Source of the DNA: an uncultured Candidatus Saccharibacteria bacterium
Lineage (GTDB): Bacteria > Patescibacteriota > Minisyncoccia > Phycocordibacterales > CAYGLL01
DNA length: 64,000 nucleotides
Direction of reading: 5' to 3'
NCBI GenBank assembly: GCA_964350935.1
Contig: CAYGLL010000004.1
Location: forward strand, 9,267 to 73,266
In this document: in pieces, positions 49,889 through 61,908 of the stretch
Position numbering within the stretch: position 1 is the stretch's first letter
Layout of the letters: each line of letters begins with the position of its first letter
Program-made: the position numbers and the translations under genes
Notes under the pieces: model-generated
The model's database searches: none
Told to the model about the DNA's origin: nothing
Seen by the model: the letters and a program-made list of their open reading frames with translations, nothing else

Positions 49889-50224
49889 TTAGAAAATAGA
49901 GTTGCCAAGAGAAACTTCGGTTTGAGTTGTGAGATAGATGGTTTCGCCTTTATCATTCTGGACACCAAGAATAAGAACTTCAGATTTTTCCGGGCCCATT
50001 TGTTTGATTCCAAGGTTTACGACGGCCACGACCTGTTTTCCGATTAAGTCCTCTTTTGTGTAGTTTCGATAAGCACCACACGATACTTTTATCCCGATTT
50101 CTGGCCCAAGATCAACCGTAATCCGGTACGTCGGTTTCTTGGTCGCTGCGTCCTCGACATTAACTATCCTTGCTACTCGAATATCGAGTGCGTCGAAATT
50201 TTTGAATTCAGCGAAAGGTTTCAT
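49889..50224 (-). CDS. csaA: tRNA-binding protein (CsaA/Trbp111-like, EMAP/Myf OB-fold), copy 1
   Basis: LDIRVARIV.VE.....KKPTYRITVDLGPE...KVSCG; 111 aa. Confidence 0.7.
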   Translation of the reverse strand: MKPFAEFKNFDALDIRVARIVNVEDAATKKPTYRITVDLGPEIGIKVSCGAYRNYTKEDLIGKQVVAVVNLGIKQMGPEKSEVLILGVQNDKGETIYLTTQTEVSLGNSIF

Positions 50225-51945: not shown

Positions 51946-52281
51946 TTAGAAAATTGAATTTCCTAGCGGGACTTCGGTTTGTGGGGTGAGATAGATGGTT
52001 TCGTCTTTGTCGTTTTGGACGCCGAGAATAAGGACCTCGGACTTTTCCGGGCCCATTTGCTTGGTGCCAAGGTTAATGACACAAATGATCTGCTTTCCAA
52101 TGAGGTCTTCCTTTGCATAGTTTCGATACGCACCACAGGATACTTTTGTCCCGATCTCAGGGCCAAGATCAACGGTAATGCGATATGTTGGCTTTTTGGT
52201 CGCCGCATCCTCGACATTCACGATCTTCCCTACCCGAATATCGAGTGCGTCAAAGTTTTTAAATTCAGCAAGAGGTTTCAT
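51946..52281 (-). CDS. csaA: tRNA-binding protein (CsaA/Trbp111-like), copy 2
   Basis: roughly 90% aa identity to copy 1 (49889..50224); nucleotide identity roughly 85%. Confidence 0.7.
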   Translation of the reverse strand: MKPLAEFKNFDALDIRVGKIVNVEDAATKKPTYRITVDLGPEIGTKVSCGAYRNYAKEDLIGKQIICVINLGTKQMGPEKSEVLILGVQNDKDETIYLTPQTEVPLGNSIF

Positions 52282-52811
52282 TTATACTTATCTGGAATTT
52301 TAGCTTTTAAATATGGGGAGTAATATCGGCCATACTTCTGAAATATATCTGGTCGCTGCCAATCGCTTGGTGTAATGAGTTCTCGGCAAGCTCGTGATTT
52401 GCAATTGCATTTGAACGGATCGAAACATGTTTGACTAAATGCGTAATCCCAAGCAATTTCAACGTCAGGTTCTATATCTTCTATAGCAATGATTGTTATT
52501 GTGTCCCGGAATCCGGCGTTTGGATCGCACGCATGATTTATGGTTGCGGTGAGTTCAAGATCTTCTGGCGTTGGTGCCATTAAAAAATTTTCATCAATGT
52601 CGAGTGGTATATTGTCAACAACATAATCCATAAGTTTGTTGTATTTTTCAATGTCTGATTTCGGTACGACAACTCCACCGGTGACTCGAAGTATTTCCCC
52701 TTTTGAAATAAATTCCCTTGCAAAAAGACCCCTAGCACAAATACGAGATTTACGAACCTCAGTCTTAGGATTAAGCCATCTATGCTGCCAAATTTTGTGA
52801 AAATCCTCCAT
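52278..52811 (-). CDS. SET-domain protein (putative lysine methyltransferase) with post-SET Cys cluster
   Basis: ARGLFAREFISKGEIL (N-SET GxG region), INHACDPN (NHSCxPN signature), ..IEPDVEIAWDY (ELxxDY-like), post-SET CNCKSRAC. Confidence 0.7.
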   Translation of the reverse strand: MEDFHKIWQHRWLNPKTEVRKSRICARGLFAREFISKGEILRVTGGVVVPKSDIEKYNKLMDYVVDNIPLDIDENFLMAPTPEDLELTATINHACDPNAGFRDTITIIAIEDIEPDVEIAWDYAFSQTCFDPFKCNCKSRACRELITPSDWQRPDIFQKYGRYYSPYLKAKIPDKYK

Positions 52812-54820: not shown

Positions 54821-55810
54821 CTAATACAACTTCGTGCCGAGGCGGGCGTGGACAAGGGTCATTTTCTTTTCGGCGATAGCGCGGGCTTTTTCGCCGCCAG
54901 CTTTGAGGACATCGAGAACCGCGGCGCGGTTGTGCTCGAGTTCACTGCGGCGGTTACGAAGTGGAGTTACGAATTTAATGAGATCGGCGATAAGAGCCTC
55001 TTTGAGGTCTTTGTACTTTCCTCGTTTGTTGACATAGAGTTTCTCAAGTTCAGCTTCGGGACGGAACAGTTTGTGTATCTCGTAGACGTTGGTCGGTGTG
55101 TCTCCAGATGAGTCGGTAACGATCGACATGACGAGTTTCTTTATCTCCTCGTCGGTCGCAAACAGTGGGATTGTATTTTTGTAGCTCTTGGACATCTTCT
55201 GGCCATCAATTCCCGGAACAGTCGCAACATCGGCGAAGATCATCGGCGCGGGCAGGCGGAATGTCTCACCAAAAATACGATTGAATTTTTCGGCCGTGTC
55301 GCGAGCAATCTCAATATGTTGTTTTTGATCTTGCCCCACCGGCACGACATCGGCGTCATACAGCAAAATATCCGCCGCCATGAGCATTGGGTAGTTGAAC
55401 GTGCCCACCGAAAGCTCTTTGTTCTTGGCTTCGGCGTCTTTGAAGGCGTGGGCGCGCATGAGGTATGGCATGGTCGTGATGCAGTCGAATATCCATGCAA
55501 GTTCGGCATGTGAGGCGATGTCGGATTGTTTGAAAATAGTGACCTTGTTCGGGTCGAGGCCGATAGCGAGGTAATCGAGAGCAACGCCCATGATCATCTC
55601 ACTCATCTCCTCTTTGTTCTGGACGCTCGTGAGGGCGTGGAGGTCGGCAATAAATATGTAGCAATCATACTTCTCTTGAAGTTCAACAAACTGCCTCATC
55701 GCGCCGAAATAATTGCCAATATGAGGCCTACCCGTGGGTTTGATCCCCGAGAGCATAGTCTTCTTAGACTCTGATTCCGATTTTATTGATTTGTCCGTTT
55801 TTGACGGCAT
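54821..55810 (-). CDS. trpS: tryptophanyl-tRNA synthetase
   Basis: HIGNY (HIGH) and KMSKS motifs; start placed at MPSKTDKS (55810) because the longer ORF would run through the upstream terminator hairpin; MLSGIKPTG at 55756 is an alternative start. Confidence 0.85.
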   Translation of the reverse strand: MPSKTDKSIKSESESKKTMLSGIKPTGRPHIGNYFGAMRQFVELQEKYDCYIFIADLHALTSVQNKEEMSEMIMGVALDYLAIGLDPNKVTIFKQSDIASHAELAWIFDCITTMPYLMRAHAFKDAEAKNKELSVGTFNYPMLMAADILLYDADVVPVGQDQKQHIEIARDTAEKFNRIFGETFRLPAPMIFADVATVPGIDGQKMSKSYKNTIPLFATDEEIKKLVMSIVTDSSGDTPTNVYEIHKLFRPEAELEKLYVNKRGKYKDLKEALIADLIKFVTPLRNRRSELEHNRAAVLDVLKAGGEKARAIAEKKMTLVHARLGTKLY

Positions 55811-55845
55811 GGCGAAATCGTAGCACAAAAGTGGCTTAGGATAAA
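55677..55845 (-). repeat. direct-repeat copy A: native trpS promoter region and first roughly 45 codons
   Basis: roughly 80-85% identical to 61630..61795 (for example ttgccaatatgagg..cccgtgggtttga..agcatagtcttcttagac..gatttgtccgtttttgacggcatg). Confidence 0.6.
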
Positions 55846-55851
55846 GATTTA

Positions 55852-55885
55852 AAAACACCCCTCGCATGTGCGAGGGGTGTTGTAG
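55852..55885 (-). terminator. Rho-independent terminator after C39-domain gene, immediately upstream of trpS
   Basis: acacccctcgca-tgtg-cgaggggtgt hairpin followed on minus strand by T-run. Confidence 0.6.
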
Positions 55886-55893
55886 TGAAGCAA

Positions 55894-57453
55894 TTACTTT
55901 TTCAGAAACCCTTTCGCTTCCCGCTCAAATTGCGGCAGCGATTTGAGTAGATTGGTGCGAGCGGACTGATTTTTTCGGATAGCGAGAAGCCACGATCCAA
56001 TCGGAGTGGAAGAGAATCTCCTCATCTGTCCAGATGACCAGTTTTCCTGCTTTCTTGAAAGCGGATCACACACCACGAAACCGTGCTGATTGTAACCTGA
56101 AACCACAACCGCATGAAGCATACCGCACATGCCGGCAAGAATGACTAGGTAGTCATCGTTCAAAAGTGAAGTAATGAGTTCGGGTGTAATCGGCACACCA
56201 TTTCTCACAACGGCACATGGACCACAATTATCAATGAAGCCTTGATACTCTGCCATGAGTGCCGAAAATGTTTCAGGATCAAGATAAGCGTTGCCATTTT
56301 GGAACATGCCGCTTTCGGAATGAATCAGTTGAGTTTCAAGTCCGTGGCAGTCAGCATACTTCTGTAATCCGGAGAAATGCGTTCCGGGTATGAGTTTTGC
56401 CGCACTTGCCTCGTAAATGGCATGTTCTGTTTTTACTGAAAGTTCCGTCAGTTCCAAGTGGTGGAGAATCATAGTGAGGCTCGCCGCACCACAGGTGTAT
56501 GGAGTTGACTGTCGGAATGGAGTTACATTTTTGACCATAAGTTCCTTTCTATAAACGTGAAGTTTTTCTAATCCTTCGGCCACCTGATTATCGTCAAGAG
56601 CGTAGATCGCTCCTGTGTTCAGAATAATCTTCGTGTCGTTAAGTAGGGTCAGAACAGCCCGTCTCAGGACATACCCTGAAATCCCTACCAATGTAGTAAG
56701 CATGGAGTACTCGTCGGTATTGTCATAGGTAATTGTCCTGGCAAGGGCTGAGACGTACGGGCGTTCCATCGCAAAGTAAAAGTGCTCGACACGTTTCGCG
56801 ACGCTCCCCCGTGTCTTACTGATTCGCTCTCGGATAACCTTGGGCGAACTATTTCTGAAGGCACTCAAATTTGCAAGTCGTCCTTCAAAAATGAGTTTGT
56901 CACCCGCATGGTATTTCTGCAGAAGGTCCTCAGTTTTTTTGCGTTTGCGCCCAGCAAGAAACAGTTCCAGGTGATCGGCCATGTAGGTCGCCCAAAAAGA
57001 AGGAGTTGGTGGCGTCAGAAGAAGTGTTGCCTCTGCGTCACTCAACATCATTTTTTGTTGCAGCCAGCTGGTCCAATACTCGATGTGCTTTTTGATCGCG
57101 GCTGTGGGAATAAGTGTCGCCTGGTCGATTAAGGATGCGACAGCATACATTTTGCCAAGTTCCACGACGCGCTCCTCGGTTAGATCAAATACGGTGCGGG
57201 GCAGAAGATCATTCAGCGCAGGTTCAAGGAGTTCTTCAAAGAAAACATTGTGCCAGTTCCACCGGTTGACGAGTTCTTCATAAAATGTCACCGGATCTTT
57301 GCGGGCCTGTTCTTCAACTAAGTTCCGAAGTAAGGGGTTTGATTGTGCAAAGTAGCGATTCGCGCCCAACAGTTCTTTGGTCAGAATCTCATCGATACTG
57401 CCCTTCCAACCATCAGGAATAAGTACGGATTTACGGTTTTTGGGTGTATTCAT
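55894..57453 (-). CDS. protein with C-terminal C39-like papain-fold cysteine peptidase domain and uncharacterised N-terminal domain
   Basis: C-terminal Q..TCGAASLTMIL (Gln oxyanion/Cys), H (LHAVVVSG) and D (VVCDP) spacing typical of C39 double-glycine leader peptidases; N-terminal 300 aa unassigned. Confidence 0.55.
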   Translation of the reverse strand: MNTPKNRKSVLIPDGWKGSIDEILTKELLGANRYFAQSNPLLRNLVEEQARKDPVTFYEELVNRWNWHNVFFEELLEPALNDLLPRTVFDLTEERVVELGKMYAVASLIDQATLIPTAAIKKHIEYWTSWLQQKMMLSDAEATLLLTPPTPSFWATYMADHLELFLAGRKRKKTEDLLQKYHAGDKLIFEGRLANLSAFRNSSPKVIRERISKTRGSVAKRVEHFYFAMERPYVSALARTITYDNTDEYSMLTTLVGISGYVLRRAVLTLLNDTKIILNTGAIYALDDNQVAEGLEKLHVYRKELMVKNVTPFRQSTPYTCGAASLTMILHHLELTELSVKTEHAIYEASAAKLIPGTHFSGLQKYADCHGLETQLIHSESGMFQNGNAYLDPETFSALMAEYQGFIDNCGPCAVVRNGVPITPELITSLLNDDYLVILAGMCGMLHAVVVSGYNQHGFVVCDPLSRKQENWSSGQMRRFSSTPIGSWLLAIRKNQSARTNLLKSLPQFEREAKGFLKK

Positions 57454-57498
57454 GTTGTAAAGACCTTTTAAATGAGACTACTCCACGCCATCATTAAG

Positions 57499-58167
57499 TC
57501 AATGCTTTTTGAGAAACGCGATAGTTTTTTCAAGTAGTTCATCTTCGTCTTTTTCTCCCATGAGGGAATGGGATGAATTATTAAGAGTGTACATAGTTGC
57601 ATTAGACAGGATTTCAGCCAGACTCATTGAATTTTGAAGCGGAACAACGGTGTCCTTGCTGCCGTGCAGAATGCAAATGGGAATGCGCAACGAAGTAGCC
57701 CACGTCCGGTTAATTTCTATATCAAGCACATTGCGAACATTTTTAAGCTCAACCGAGCTCAGTTTACTTACGGTTTCCTCGCCGGAGGTTACTCCAATCG
57801 CCGGAGCCCAGAGTGTTAAAGCGCGTATCAGTGGGTTACGGTATGAAATTAAAAGTGTCGCTCCAAAACTTTTTCCAATAGCAGTAAATTGCTTGAACCC
57901 TTGTTGAGAAAAATAATTGAGAATAGCGTCAAGCTCTTGATGATAATAGTTGATAGTTGAGCGCTCTAGTTCGGACTGATTCTGCCACATGTCTACTCGA
58001 GCAAGCGGCATTCCCTCACGGGTAAAATAAGATTCTAGCCGGGCATATTTGTCTGTAGTGGCCACGCCGCTGATTCCTGCTATAAAAAGCACTAAGTTTT
58101 TTGCTTGATCAGTCTTTATGTCGTTTAGGGCAACAAGACTATTACTTATTTTGATTATATTTTGCAT
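57499..58167 (-). CDS. alpha/beta-fold hydrolase
   Basis: GKSFG nucleophile elbow (GxSxG), ...HGSKD... His region. Confidence 0.55.
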   Translation of the reverse strand: MQNIIKISNSLVALNDIKTDQAKNLVLFIAGISGVATTDKYARLESYFTREGMPLARVDMWQNQSELERSTINYYHQELDAILNYFSQQGFKQFTAIGKSFGATLLISYRNPLIRALTLWAPAIGVTSGEETVSKLSSVELKNVRNVLDIEINRTWATSLRIPICILHGSKDTVVPLQNSMSLAEILSNATMYTLNNSSHSLMGEKDEDELLEKTIAFLKKH

Positions 58168-58171
58168 ATCT

Positions 58172-59422
58172 TTATGGAAAAGGATGAGGAAGTTTTTGAG
58201 ACCTAGGCTTAATTCCTCTTCGAAGCGCCTGCCCCAGCTTTGGTAGTATGTGCGATTTATTTAAATCAATCATTCGAGGTATGACAACACGAGCAATTGT
58301 GAACCCGCTGTCCTTAAGGTCTGTCGAAGTTATGTCTTTATAATAGACCTCAAATTTTTTTTCCGAAAGTTTATTAAAAAGCGAACGTTGAGACAAAGTG
58401 GTTGCTTTATAAGGAATTTTTTTTACAATCTTAGTCCGTAAAAGATCGAAATTTTCACCCTGATAAAAAAGAAAGTGCTCAAACAGCGCGGTAATATCTT
58501 TCGGCCTATCCTTCCTGTATTCTAACAAATCCATTGAATAGAAATAGGTAAAGAGGGCCTCTATAAGAGCCTTTTCAACTGCTCGGTTTGAATCAAGATG
58601 CGAACACGAACCTATTCCAAAATGGTAGCCCTTCTTTCTACTTTTTGTCCATACGTATGCGCCGAAAGTTGGAACAGATACTGCCGCAGGAAGTATGAAT
58701 AGTTCGAGATTATAGTATTTTTGTATTTTTTTAATGAATTTTTTAAGTTTGAGGGGGAGTGTCTCAGTATCCACACTATCAAGTTCGGTATCTGAATAGT
58801 GCCGCATCATTTGTGCATCACGCTCGATTATTTCTAACGTTCCACCGAGAATTGAGTCAGCCAGTTTTTTTCCAGCCGCGATCCCCGTTGAAGTTGTTTC
58901 TGCTATTTTTTCAAGGTGAAATGGCAAGTAGACAAGTGCCGCCGGCCAGTACAGTTCTTTTTTTCTCTGCGCAGACTTTATTTTTACCCAGTGAATTAGA
59001 TCTGTTGTGGCATTTTTAAAATGAACAGGAGTTGTTGTGGGTCCGTATATATTCAAATCAATTTTTGAAGGCGCACAAGATGAGTCAAGATCTTTATGTT
59101 TTGACAAAAGAAGTTCTGGGCGAGAATAGAAAGACATCGCGTATCGTTCAAGTGATTCTCCAATGCATGCGAATAGTGCTGATTTTTTATTGGACGCAAC
59201 ACCTAACCCGCCCGAAGAAAGTTCCTCGGTTTGATTACTGTTAAGTACGGTTATTTTTGCTGTTAGTGATTGAAAAGAGTTTAGGCCGAATCGGCTAAGC
59301 ATGTCTCGTTCCAGGATTGCGTTTATGTGTCCGGTAAACTTGCTGATCAAGGGTTCAAGCTGTTTTCGCTCTCTCTTTGTCAGAAACCTCAATTTTTTTG
59401 TTGAAGTGTGAATATTATTCAT
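58172..59422 (-). CDS. YcaO-domain protein
   Basis: ALFACIGESLERY and GTLEIIERDA ATP/Mg-binding signatures of YcaO cyclodehydratase-type domain; ATG at 59422 (MNNIH) gives ATGAATAA start/stop coupling with the upstream ORF. Confidence 0.65.
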   Translation of the reverse strand: MNNIHTSTKKLRFLTKRERKQLEPLISKFTGHINAILERDMLSRFGLNSFQSLTAKITVLNSNQTEELSSGGLGVASNKKSALFACIGESLERYAMSFYSRPELLLSKHKDLDSSCAPSKIDLNIYGPTTTPVHFKNATTDLIHWVKIKSAQRKKELYWPAALVYLPFHLEKIAETTSTGIAAGKKLADSILGGTLEIIERDAQMMRHYSDTELDSVDTETLPLKLKKFIKKIQKYYNLELFILPAAVSVPTFGAYVWTKSRKKGYHFGIGSCSHLDSNRAVEKALIEALFTYFYSMDLLEYRKDRPKDITALFEHFLFYQGENFDLLRTKIVKKIPYKATTLSQRSLFNKLSEKKFEVYYKDITSTDLKDSGFTIARVVIPRMIDLNKSHILPKLGQALRRGIKPRSQKLPHPFP

Positions 59423-59834
59423 ACACCGGTAGTGGGCGTATCGTGTGCAGTTTGATGAGTTTTCCGGTATTTCCAAGTTCGAGCATGTACCTTTTTCCAA
59501 AGACTTGGACAAATTTTTTCCTGAGAATTTTTTGAAGTACCTGTGACCTGTTCGGATTTATGAGTTTTATTTTTTTTGAGTCAATAAACGAAGATGAAGA
59601 AATGCGTTTAAGGATAAGTTCAAAATCTGCTAAATTTTTAAGCGTTGGCCCAACTAAGTAAGAATGCGAAAAACGTGCAATAAAGATCGCCGGGACCGTT
59701 TCAGCTCCAGCATCCTTACCCCTTTTTCCTAGCCGGACTTGTTCTTTTGCCATTTTTCTTAACACAACATCACCATTGTGTGGTGATGTTGTGTTCTGCT
59801 TAGGCGGTGCAGAGGAGGTCAAACTTTTTAGCAA
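59415..59834 (-). CDS. hypothetical basic protein, translationally coupled to ycaO-like gene
   Basis: ORF (TTG at 59834; first ATG about 59753); no family recognised; stop overlaps the YcaO start. Confidence 0.35.
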   Translation of the reverse strand: MLKSLTSSAPPKQNTTSPHNGDVVLRKMAKEQVRLGKRGKDAGAETVPAIFIARFSHSYLVGPTLKNLADFELILKRISSSSFIDSKKIKLINPNRSQVLQKILRKKFVQVFGKRYMLELGNTGKLIKLHTIRPLPVYE

Positions 59835-60018
59835 ATTTTTTCATTGTGTATTTGCTTAGTCCGATTGATAATAAAGTTCGAAGCTAAGTATAAGTGTATC
59901 ACTGTTGAAATATGTTGCAAGTTAATAACAACATGAATTGATTATCAATATTTAAGTTATGTATGGCGGTGTGTTTCAGAATTAAGGTTAAAGCCTAGTG
60001 TACTCATTTCAGTTCTGT

Positions 60019-60552
60019 TTATCGGAAAAAAAATTTACTAATTAACTTCGGCAGATCCCCTTTTGCCCTATCACCTCCTTTTATCTTTTCCAAAAGTTCA
60101 CTGGGCAAAAGCCAGAAAAATTCAATAAAATCTCTTGTGTTGTAGCGCGGATCAGCATTCAAAGAAATCTCGTACACGTTCATAAAAGCAGACACACCGT
60201 GCTCGTGCGGTGTTAAGTGACCGAGCAATTTCCACGTTGTAGTTTCAGTGTCTACGTTTAGTTCTTCTGCCGTCTCGCGTTTAAATGCCTGGTCGTATGT
60301 TTCCCCGCTTTCTACGTGTCCACCCATACTCATATCAAGGCAGAGCGGAAATATTCGTTTGTCTACCGATCTGCGCGGAATCCACATTTTTCCTTCAGAG
60401 TTTACGACAAATGCGTTTACTACTCGGAAATTTGAAAGACCTTCGGCGTAAATTTCTTTTCGAGATTTTTTGCCAATCACCTTGTCATTTCGGTCCACAA
60501 GGTCGAGATATTCTTCTTGCACAGGTTGAATCTTGTTAGTTTCAGGTACCAT
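60019..60552 (-). CDS. Nudix hydrolase
   Basis: Nudix box GGHVESGETYDQAFKRETAEELNV (Gx5Ex7REuxEExGu). Confidence 0.75.
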   Translation of the reverse strand: MVPETNKIQPVQEEYLDLVDRNDKVIGKKSRKEIYAEGLSNFRVVNAFVVNSEGKMWIPRRSVDKRIFPLCLDMSMGGHVESGETYDQAFKRETAEELNVDTETTTWKLLGHLTPHEHGVSAFMNVYEISLNADPRYNTRDFIEFFWLLPSELLEKIKGGDRAKGDLPKLISKFFFR

Positions 60553-60692: not shown

Positions 60693-61037
60693 ATGAAAAC
60701 ACTCGAAATTAACGGAGAACTCTGGTTCTACCTCGGCGAGCCTTTTGCCGTACGGTGCGATGATCAATGTGGCCTGACCGCTGTCGGAAACATCAGGCGG
60801 GCCAAAGAAGGTAAGCCTCGCAAAGTTTGGATCCACAGTCTCGCGGATGCCTTTGCTTGCGCTGAAGAGTGGGCCGCTAATAACGACCACCTTTCGGGGT
60901 ATGTTTTGGACTTCGCCAATCGCACTGTTTACTACGACAACGATCGGGCACTCCGACAGTTGAAGAGGAAGATCTTCCCTCAACGTAACCTCGTCGGCTA
61001 CTTCACAACCTTTACCCAAAGGTCGTTCAAGAAGTAA
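60693..61037 (+). CDS. hypothetical protein (higher-GC segment)
   Basis: ORF; plus strand preferred because of strong downstream plus-strand terminator; no family recognised. Confidence 0.3.
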   Translation: MKTLEINGELWFYLGEPFAVRCDDQCGLTAVGNIRRAKEGKPRKVWIHSLADAFACAEEWAANNDHLSGYVLDFANRTVYYDNDRALRQLKRKIFPQRNLVGYFTTFTQRSFKK

Positions 61038-61070: not shown

Positions 61071-61490
61071 ATGAAAACAATTATGAAAGTCCCGCATCCT
61101 GCGGGCATCGCGATTAATAATCGCCCTCTCCTCGACGCCTTCATCGAGCTCTGTCTCAGGATCGATAACATGGGAACCCTCCGGGACGAGTTCAAAGGAA
61201 TCGATCAGATCGAAATCACCGGCGAGGAATCACAAAATTCCGAACCGGAGTGGGGTCAGGCGTTAGGCATCAGGTGCCATTTGAAGATCCCTGGGGTTGA
61301 ACCAGCGATTGGAAACGCGTTCCTCTCTGTCGGCACCTTCCTCTTTGTCACGAAGGGCCGAGCGCGTGCTTCTCATGCATGTGGGCCCACCATCGAAGGG
61401 CAAATCAAGGATGTTCTTGATCCCTTAGCCGCAAGCCTCGCCATGAGCTGTCTCGAGTTGGCTCAAAGGTTTGCACCCACAGCCACGTAG
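61071..61490 (+). CDS. hypothetical protein (higher-GC segment)
   Basis: ORF followed by strong terminator; no family recognised. Confidence 0.3.
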   Translation: MKTIMKVPHPAGIAINNRPLLDAFIELCLRIDNMGTLRDEFKGIDQIEITGEESQNSEPEWGQALGIRCHLKIPGVEPAIGNAFLSVGTFLFVTKGRARASHACGPTIEGQIKDVLDPLAASLAMSCLELAQRFAPTAT

Positions 61491-61504: not shown

Positions 61505-61537
61505 ACGAGACCCGATCAACCGATCGGGTCTCTTTTT
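61505..61537 (+). terminator. Rho-independent terminator
   Basis: gagacccgatc-aacc-gatcgggtctc perfect 11-bp hairpin followed by ttttttat. Confidence 0.75.
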
Positions 61538-61629: not shown

Positions 61630-61795
61630 TCGCGGAGACATAAGCCTCATTGCTCCAAAATAGTTGCCAATATGAGGGCGGCCCGTGGGTTTGACCCCAC
61701 TAAGCATAGTCTTCTTAGACCATTCTATATGATTTGTCCGTTTTTGACGGCATGCGGGAATAGTAGCAAAAAAAGCCTAATTTGAAGTTCGGTGG
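61630..61795 (-). pseudogene. direct-repeat copy B: degraded duplicate of the trpS 5' end (MPSKTDKS... then frameshift/stop)
   Basis: encodes MPSKTDKSYRMV* and, out of frame, LSGVKPTGRPHIGNYFGAMR; lies immediately downstream of the tRNA-Trp terminator. Confidence 0.6.
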
Positions 61796-61796
61796 A

Positions 61797-61830
61797 TTTA
61801 AAAAAAGAAAACTCCCAGGTGGGAGTTTTA
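61797..61830 (-). terminator. Rho-independent terminator downstream of tRNA-Trp
   Basis: aaaactcccacctgggagtttt hairpin followed on minus strand by ctttttttt. Confidence 0.7.
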
Positions 61831-61834
61831 GGGT

Positions 61835-61908
61835 TGGCAGGCACGGAAGGAATCGAACCCTCGGTAAGGATTTTGGAGATCCCTGGTTTACCACTAACCG
61901 ACGTGCCC
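61835..61908 (-). tRNA. tRNA-Trp (anticodon CCA)
   Basis: hand fold of GGGCACGTCGGTTAGTGGTAAACCAGGGATCTCCAAAATCCTTACCGAGGGTTCGATTCCTTCCGTGCCTGCCA: 7-bp acceptor stem (G1-U72 wobble), D-arm GGTT/AACC, anticodon loop CTCCAAA (U33, C34C35A36, A37), T-arm GAGGG-TTCGATT-CCTTC, discriminator G73, encoded CCA. Confidence 0.8.

Follow-up and report, generated by a model that had tools for sequence, protein, structure and literature searches.

The DNA studied here is a 64,000-nucleotide (nt) stretch from an uncultured Candidatus Saccharibacteria bacterium (GenBank contig CAYGLL010000004.1, positions 9,267 to 73,266 of the forward strand), called the window below, and the system in question is a small gene cluster built around a YcaO-domain protein. 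According to the open reading frame (ORF) list of the window, five ORFs lie head to tail at 55894-60552, all on the minus strand, and encode a Nudix hydrolase, a 112-amino-acid (aa) protein, the YcaO enzyme, an alpha/beta-fold hydrolase, and a 519-aa protein with a C39-like domain (Table 1). An initial annotation had read this region as a candidate peptide-modification locus with YcaO, C39-like, Nudix, and alpha/beta-hydrolase genes on one strand, and both the ORF coordinates and the family scans agree with that gene content. Its plural "hydrolases" applies to one alpha/beta hydrolase, not several, and the YcaO protein, given there as 446 aa, is 416 aa by the public gene call. The small coupled ORF that it described is present and overlaps the YcaO start by 8 nt, but it encodes 112 aa, not 139; its product is presumed to be a translationally coupled partner of YcaO. 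Pfam and NCBIfam scans of the locus genes detected none of the E1-like, TfuA, dehydrogenase, and RRE/PqqD families, in agreement with the earlier statement that the first three are lacking.

Table 1. Features of the YcaO locus and of the repeats that bracket it (positions in the window).
Feature	Position	Strand	Basis or remark
Right direct repeat beside tRNA-Trp: hairpin, upstream region, frameshifted 5' trpS remnant	61644-61835	-	D1/D2, alignment
Nudix hydrolase, 177 aa	60019-60552	-	PF00293, E=2.7e-12; first gene of the apparent operon
Micro-ORF MKKFAKKFDLLCTA, 14 codons plus stop, candidate precursor peptide	59800-59844	-	direct sequence reading
Perfect 15-bp stem-loop between micro-ORF and 112-aa gene	59761-59795	-	inverted repeat I11, 100% complementary
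112-aa protein, conserved ~111-aa family	59415-59753	-	public gene call P0189
YcaO, 416 aa, probable azoline-forming type, ATG start	58172-59422	-	PF02624; public gene call P0001
Alpha/beta-fold serine hydrolase, 222 aa	57499-58167	-	Hydrolase_4, E=1.7e-9; directly 3' of the YcaO gene
519-aa two-domain protein, whole gene	55894-57453	-	family scans
519-aa protein, all-alpha domain, residues 1-305	56539-57453	-	fold without known match
519-aa protein, C39-type papain-like peptidase, residues ~306-519	55894-56538	-	PF03412 and PF13529 matches
GC-rich hairpin followed by a T-run, 3' of the 519-aa gene	55851-55877	-	sequence reading: CCCCTCGCA..TGCGAGGGG TGTTTTT
Left direct repeat: hairpin, trpS upstream region, first ~40 codons of intact trpS	55693-55880	-	D1/D2, alignment

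The initial annotation had reported no precursor ORF, only ORFs of 8-16 aa; one of these is the conserved candidate precursor of the system. It was found by clustering all short ORFs around homologous loci. In the window, this micro-ORF has a basic N-terminal part and a Cys-Thr-Ala tail, and it lies 46 nt upstream of the 112-aa gene. Its homologues comprise 30 distinct peptides in 71 instances from 70 loci, with lengths of 14-18 aa. The tail is CTA in 67 instances and CTV, CTG, CSV, or STV in the remainder, so that the pattern [C/S][T/S][A/V/G] describes 71/71; the Cys, Ser, or Thr that a YcaO precursor carries in its core is thus present in all 71. In 35 loci, an 18-codon ORF with the consensus MRKLMKKFNRKYDMLCTA precedes the peptidase gene by ~100-150 nt. 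In Paceibacterota, MKFIKKFDKKYDLLCTA is found between the peptidase gene and the 111-aa gene, and the closest relative of the window (L060) has MKKFSKKLDLLCTA at the equivalent place. Two tandem copies with differing tails (MKKMNQKTDLLCTA and MKKFNQKTDLACSV) lie upstream of the 111-aa gene at 4995-5249 of L012, a record deposited under the label Gammaproteobacteria. The placement therefore takes three forms: upstream of the peptidase gene, in the interval between the peptidase and 111-aa genes, or upstream of the 112-aa gene as in the window.

The codon-position entropy of the micro-ORF is 0.47/0.32/1.16 for positions 1/2/3, and this concentration of variation at the third position is typical of coding sequence. 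A GGAGG ribosome-binding site precedes the micro-ORF in nearly all gut loci. We also ran a degenerate DNA pattern for F-x-[K/R]-K-x-D-x-x-C-T-A-stop against the whole metagenome collection; all 26 matches were this micro-ORF, where a rough estimate of the number expected by chance is <1. Peptidase and/or YcaO genes are visible beside 25 of the 26, and the remaining match is at a contig end. The association holds both ways, because pattern matches are found beside the enzyme genes and the enzyme loci carry the micro-ORF. No NCBIfam model matched the peptide, apart from a sub-threshold Clo7bot leader match obtained from an artificial two-copy query. Gly-Gly, Gly-Ala, and Gly-Ser are absent from all 30 distinct peptides, and the sole glycine is the final residue of the CTG tail in L034. 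The micro-ORF is listed as a called gene in none of the locus gene tables, and the recovered enzyme proteins mostly have no functional name in their sources. These sequence comparisons support the view that the micro-ORF is a translated gene under protein-level selection, and it is very likely that its peptide is the substrate of this enzyme set.

A hairpin follows the micro-ORF. The region of the stem-loop in the window folds at -33.6 kcal/mol with z=-5.8 (RNA fold), and among the 45 distinct 60-mers downstream of micro-ORFs, 37 have z<-2 relative to shuffles, with a median z=-4.3. The position of the hairpin is conserved across the loci, and the stem sequences are unrelated. It may act as a partial terminator or stabiliser that would raise the level of precursor message over that of enzyme message. 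Other modified-peptide operons are known to have hairpins arranged for this purpose.

The four-part system occurs in ~70 DNA stretches from small-genome bacteria of groundwater and animal guts. Contigs with YcaO homologues at 39-47% identity also encode a protein of ~111 aa, in a gene that overlaps the start of YcaO, and a C39-like protein of ~520-540 aa; whenever a contig found through its YcaO gene was long enough, all three genes were present. The 519-aa family was also searched in species-representative genomes, which returned 40 loci from gut bins named 'uncultured Bacilli', 'Mycoplasma sp. CAG:472/776', and 'Tenericutes', with chromosomes of ~1.2-1.5 Mb, and from Paceibacterota, Woesebacteria, and Blackburnbacteria. 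A YcaO homologue just downstream of the 519-aa homologue was present in 34/34 loci with a complete gene and enough flank, and so was the ~111-aa gene overlapping the YcaO gene; the ~111-aa gene lies immediately upstream of YcaO in 45 loci. The initial annotation had allowed that the C39-like protein might turn up independently elsewhere, with no conserved linkage. This scenario does not apply, because YcaO is linked to it in all 34 complete loci. The exceptions to linkage are cut-short contigs or decayed fragments. In a Blackburnbacteria contig (L048, 4512-5874) and its near-identical counterpart labelled 'archaeon' (L049), a broken 519-aa gene lies beside an alpha/beta-hydrolase-like ORF, and this appears to be a degraded remnant of the system. 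A permuted gene order is common to the window, L002, L060, and L012: the genes for the small protein and YcaO lead, and the peptidase gene closes the set; the hydrolase lies between the YcaO and peptidase genes in the first three, not in L012.

None of the NCBIfam, Pfam, PADLOC, and PHROGs collections contains a model for the peptide, for the 111-aa protein, or for the all-alpha domain. Two origins were considered and rejected. For a defence system, PADLOC gave no core-protein match, only Nudix and generic radical-SAM similarities; for a phage, there was no PHROG match of note, and no relative of the system was found in viral contigs. A literature search on the peptide motif, on YcaO in candidate phyla radiation (CPR) bacteria, Patescibacteria, and Tenericutes, and on YcaO with C39 found no description of the system, with subscription-only papers outside its range. 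Other YcaO clusters in CPR bacteria, mostly with a nitroreductase and an 84-aa precursor, were described by Sharrar et al. 2020 (PMC7298704).

The YcaO protein of the window matches PF02624 with E=3.7e-38 and 132.1 bits (curated cut-off 25.7), and it contains the motifs GESLER and EIIERD on reading of the sequence. In 120/120 YcaO homologues, ExxERD is present and PHPFP forms the last five residues. A PxPxP C-terminus is the canonical motif of azoline-forming YcaO cyclodehydratases (PMC12338566), and PHPFP has this form, as in SagD-type cyclodehydratases. The best NCBIfam model is also SagD-type (TIGR03604, 165.9 bits). The thioamidation model for McrA-glycine (TIGR03266) gave 70.5 bits against a cut-off of 365, and no TfuA is encoded at the locus. 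When a profile of the YcaO clade was compared with the PDB, the nearest solved relatives were MusD (3.5e-24), TruD (1.6e-20), and LynD (3e-20), followed by MJ1094 (2e-14) and McbD (6e-8); the weakest of the six was a chain named simply YcaO (6ci7, 6.6e-6). A grouping with the stand-alone E. coli-type YcaO, which would have undermined the initial annotation, was not observed: the E. coli-type kinase-domain model TIGR00702 gave 46.8 bits, below its cut-off of 75.65, and 6ci7 ranked last. The PHPFP terminus and the solved relatives MusD, TruD, and LynD point to a YcaO of the azoline-forming type. The proposal of a non-canonical YcaO peptide-modification locus thus gains support from both the type of YcaO and its conserved linkage to the C39-like protein.

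The C39-like matches in the 519-aa protein lie in residues 309-465 and exceed the cut-offs of both families (PF03412, 25.3 bits with cut-off 22; PF13529, 25.2 bits with cut-off 24). This region has the C39 fold and a Gln/Cys/His/Asp active site. The protein has no transporter domain, so it is not the fusion to an ATP-binding cassette (ABC) exporter typical of C39 peptidases, and no exporter gene was found among the conserved neighbour clusters. Hydropathy revealed no membrane segments in the locus proteins, the sole hydrophobic peak lying in modelled beta-strands. Because there are no predicted membrane segments and no linked exporter, the C39-type peptidase and the chemistry of the system are predicted to be cytoplasmic.

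The N-terminal 305 residues form an all-alpha domain, which the initial annotation had called unknown. This description stands: a fold search gave no convincing PDB match to the domain, its top matches all looking like matches to the peptidase domain, and no Pfam family covers it. Only 115 representatives were found among 1.8 billion proteins. Many polar residues of the domain are invariant, and a core of W65, H68, K121, R192, Y226, D244, N245, E248, and R264 is kept in distant stand-alone homologues. This conserved polar core therefore suggests a putative catalytic or specific binding site. A diiron site made of H68, E73, E77, H182, D185, D244, and E248 was considered and rejected, as E73, E77, and H182 are not kept in the stand-alone homologues. 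For the 112-aa protein, Pfam and NCBIfam scans gave no family match; the RRE-like fold that the initial annotation had envisaged for the small ORF was looked for by fold search, and none was found.

The all-alpha domain also occurs apart from the peptidase. At 4223-6975 of L054, a stand-alone homologue (P0308) adjoins a gene of the MNIO family (MbnB/TglH/ChrH; PF05114, E=1e-73). The same locus has a 262-aa protein, a 22-codon ORF MEFTIQEVLTTEVETKEKMCGD ending in MCGD, and a methionyl-tRNA synthetase (MetRS) gene two genes upstream. L054 may represent a second tiny-peptide pathway using the all-alpha domain. The MNIO link was not replicated, as a metagenome scan with P0308 gave nothing. L057 (2114-3638) has two separate, overlapping genes, one for the all-alpha domain (321 aa) and one for a C39-like protein (189 aa); YcaO is not among the called genes of this 5.7-kb contig, and no convincing micro-ORF was seen nearby. 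If this holds up beyond these single loci, the all-alpha domain would be a module shared by pathways that act on tiny Cys-bearing peptides.

The alpha/beta hydrolase has a GKSxG nucleophile elbow, and S100, D172, and H200 are invariant. Its gene is found at the corresponding place in L002, L060, and the Paceibacterota loci L006 and L013, and an alpha/beta-hydrolase match 3' of YcaO was also obtained in L075 and L080. In gut Bacilli, the hydrolase is replaced at this position by a protein of ~320 aa that weakly matches an ANT(2'')-like nucleotidyltransferase (E=1e-3), and genes for a MoaA-like radical SAM enzyme and a protein of ~125 aa often come next; L079 has the fullest accessory set. The window has neither the nucleotidyltransferase gene nor the radical SAM gene. 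The Nudix protein scores below every NCBIfam equivalog cut-off, and Nudix genes recur inside the operon in L035 and in or near the cluster in L027, L003, and L031. Nudix is a recurrent, non-universal accessory. NDK is encoded near the cluster in L003 and L009.

Taken together, the locus is probably a compact operon for a ribosomally made, post-translationally modified peptide, that is, a minimal YcaO pathway with new partners. In this scheme, the backbone amide that precedes Cys12 and/or Thr13 would be activated by YcaO and its 112-aa partner at the expense of ATP, and the side-chain thiol or hydroxyl would then close a thiazoline and/or methyloxazoline ring. Ala14 would serve as a one-residue follower that keeps the modified residue off the C-terminus; action on a C-terminal residue had not been demonstrated for any characterised YcaO before the recent study of daptides (PMC12338566). 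The C39 domain would subsequently remove the basic N-terminal part of the peptide, which may be held by the all-alpha domain or by the partner, and the serine hydrolase and the Nudix enzyme may have a part in tailoring the product or in protecting the producing cell. Substitutions in the tail replace Cys by Ser or Thr by Ser, so that a nucleophile is retained, as azoline chemistry requires.

Several observations weigh against this scheme. The TIGR03604 score of YcaO is below the curated cut-off of 219.25, and family scans found neither an E1-like or Ocin-ThiF-like partner nor a recognisable RRE at the locus. The structure model of the 112-aa protein is of moderate confidence and matches no known fold, so its role as a partner rests on gene linkage. 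The peptide offers no Gly-Gly site to the C39 peptidase, and the micro-ORF of the window has no ribosome-binding site, a feature that it shares with 46/53 window genes. The three-residue core is nearly invariant across phyla, unlike the cores of known azoline peptides. The nucleotide-related accessories in other lineages hint at further chemistry.

The same precursor and enzymes might instead support another YcaO chemistry on the tail, such as thioamide, amidine, or other C-terminal modification, or give a peptide-nucleotide conjugate similar to microcin C. The locus encodes neither a dehydrogenase nor an E1-like partner, and the accessories found elsewhere, namely the ANT(2'')-like nucleotidyltransferase, the MoaA-like radical SAM enzyme, Nudix, and NDK, would suit such a product. 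The tiny precursor gene and the hairpin behind it are reminiscent of mccA, and aminoacyl-tRNA synthetase (aaRS) genes are often adjacent. YcaO enzymes can also use amine nucleophiles and act at termini (PMC12338566). However, azoline formation is the chemistry indicated by the PHPFP terminus and by the closest relatives of solved structure. The absence of TfuA and the score of the thioamide-type model, far below its cut-off, speak against thioamidation, and an MccB-like or E1-like adenylating enzyme is missing. The nucleotidyltransferase and radical SAM genes do not occur in the window, and the aaRS adjacency is weak evidence, since the 64-kb window has three such genes. We regard these other chemistries as rather unlikely.

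It is quite improbable that the micro-ORF is a regulatory leader (an attenuator with its hairpin) or a small structural subunit, with YcaO modifying a cellular protein encoded elsewhere. The layout of micro-ORF and hairpin does resemble that of attenuators, the cluster lies among housekeeping genes in small genomes, and the peptide is unusually conserved for a modified-peptide core. A role in the modification of ribosomal proteins has been proposed for E. coli YcaO and is discussed in PMC7550191. The YcaO studied here is not of the E. coli type, however, and across phyla the amino-acid sequence is preserved over the full length of the peptide while codons change synonymously; runs of regulatory codons are absent. 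The micro-ORF changes position relative to the enzyme genes and is present twice in L012, which argues against a purely regulatory leader. The tail also retains Cys/Ser and Thr/Ser, and the association of micro-ORF and enzymes is exclusive in both directions. A chance neighbourhood, in which a stand-alone housekeeping YcaO lies beside an unrelated peptidase and hydrolases, is extremely improbable and is refuted by the linkage in 34/34 genome loci and further metagenome loci, by the overlapping genes, and by the apparent acquisition of the locus as one repeat-bounded block.

Returning to the azoline-type pathway, its consequences would be as follows. The peptide would be, to our knowledge, the smallest YcaO precursor reported, with 14 aa and a three-residue core, and the YcaO pathway would function without an E1-like partner and a dehydrogenase, having instead two modules without known relatives. 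The carriers are hard to grow and biosynthesis-poor; they comprise CPR bacteria and gut Bacilli with small genomes, some of them obtained from human samples. Genes of 14-18 codons escape gene callers and genome-mining rules, which leaves a blind spot for precursors of this kind. The conservation of the peptide resembles that of cofactor precursors, not that of antibiotic cores. We tentatively raise the possibility that the Cys-Thr-Ala tail becomes a small heterocyclic cofactor, metal binder, or signal cut from a basic scaffold of 11-15 residues and is not an arms-race antibiotic, with the all-alpha domain as a new enzyme or recognition module for YcaO-type and MNIO-type pathways and the 111-aa protein replacing the E1-like protein. 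If so, the molecule would be common to reduced-genome Patescibacteria and gut Bacilli (genomes of ~1.2-1.5 Mb).

The initial annotation had placed the cluster inside a putative island. This agrees with diverged direct repeats of ~190 nt (families D1 and D2, 84-89% identity), which bracket a 5.9-kb segment at tRNA-Trp/trpS and hold the first ~40-45 trpS codons. In 25 comparable codons, alignment of the trpS remnant with intact trpS shows 8 synonymous changes, one I-to-V change, and an 8-nt deletion. As the differences are mostly synonymous, the remnant probably derives from a second, once-functional trpS allele, and this is a sign that the operon may have been acquired by recombination with foreign but related DNA. 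There is no integrase inside the 5.9-kb segment. The hairpin 3' of the 519-aa gene is likely the operon terminator; it was not flagged by the consensus terminator scan. In the pairwise alignment, it and the hairpin after tRNA-Trp are homologous, and the stem changes between the two are compensatory.

Two ORFs on the opposite strand are also inside the insertion, at 60693-61037 (+, 114 aa) and 61071-61490 (+, 139 aa). They gave no Pfam, NCBIfam, or PADLOC match and one weak PHROG match of unknown function (E=0.007). The GC content over them is ~47%, compared with ~39-42% over the operon (2-kb windows), and an intrinsic-terminator-like site at 61507-61532 follows the 139-aa ORF.

In L060, the cluster directly follows the 3' end of an apparent trpS, recognised by eye from a C-terminal fragment. 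Genes for aaRS often lie within a few kb of the cluster in different lineages: tryptophanyl-tRNA synthetase (TrpRS) in L013, L027, L060, and L080, and MetRS in L009, L034, and L054. This proximity could be due to chance in gene-dense small genomes, or it could be meaningful if the product targets an aaRS. The idea that trpS serves as a resistance gene against an aaRS-targeting product was down-weighted, as the flanking aaRS differ by lineage and three are encoded in the window.

The remainder of the window is housekeeping, including DnaB, CysRS, TypA, ATP synthase, an archaeal-type AspRS, and two ABC exporters. A Shine-Dalgarno-like 4-mer was found upstream of only 7/53 window genes, and three aaRS genes (CysRS, archaeal-type AspRS, and TrpRS) lie within the 64 kb; both features are suggestive of a small genome. 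Further along, two 111-aa paralogues of ~88% identity at 49889-50224 and 51946-52281 have a CsaA-type tRNA-binding look by eye and flank an apparent membrane-transporter gene and a 260-aa ORF, also identified by eye, which suggests a local duplication. A 177-aa ORF at 52278-52811 has a SET-domain look, judged by eye from an NHACDPN-type motif.

In its mode of action, the locus comes closest to the linear azoline peptide pathways, although two defining features, the E1-like partner and a score above the model cut-off, are lacking. With the SagBCD, McbBCD, and BalhCD systems and with MusD, TruD, and LynD, which are fused cyanobactin heterocyclases that form azolines, it shares the ATP/Mg motifs of YcaO and the C-terminal PxPxP; with azoline (thiazole/oxazole-modified microcin, TOMM) systems in general, it shares a ribosomal substrate with adjacent Cys and Thr and a best NCBIfam match to the SagD-type model. 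In contrast to these systems, it has no E1-like (C) protein or domain, flavin mononucleotide-dependent dehydrogenase (B), or recognisable RRE, and its YcaO scores below the SagD cut-off. The precursor here has only 14-18 aa with a near-invariant core of three residues, and the 111-aa protein and the all-alpha domain are both without known relatives. Compared with the C39 leader peptidases LahT150, ComA PEP, and PCAT1, the peptidase domain is fused to a 300-residue all-alpha domain and not to an ABC transporter, it is predicted to be cytoplasmic, and its putative substrate has no double-glycine site.

In bottromycin biosynthesis, the YcaO enzymes work without an E1-like partner, an accessory has the alpha/beta-hydrolase fold, and a follower is removed after heterocycle formation. 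The locus resembles this type in its YcaO without an E1-like partner, in the alpha/beta-hydrolase gene of the operon, and in a heterocyclisable Cys near the C-terminus followed by possible follower residues; the general point on follower residues in YcaO substrates is taken from PMC12338566. It differs in the basic N-terminal part of the peptide, the follower of one or two residues, the other partner proteins and taxa, and the absence of a P450, a methyltransferase, and an aminopeptidase. The likeness to microcin C lies in the order of a very short precursor gene, a stem-loop, and then the enzyme genes, and in the nucleotide-handling and hydrolase accessories of some lineages. In microcin C, mccA is a 7-codon gene with a downstream hairpin. 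The system described here has no MccB-type E1-like adenylyltransferase (no ThiF/E1 domain), uses YcaO as its core enzyme, and has Ala, Val, or Gly, not Asn, as the C-terminal residue of the precursor.

The likeness to MNIO (MbnB/TglH/ChrH) systems comes from L054 only, where an all-alpha homologue lies beside an MNIO gene and the 22-codon ORF likewise encodes a tiny Cys-bearing peptide; the window has no MNIO gene. With the E. coli-type YcaO, an accessory of RimO in the modification of ribosomal protein S12, the likeness is limited to the Pfam YcaO domain, whereas the enzyme of this locus has 416 aa and a PHPFP terminus and has the genes for the peptide, the 111-aa protein, and the peptidase as constant neighbours.

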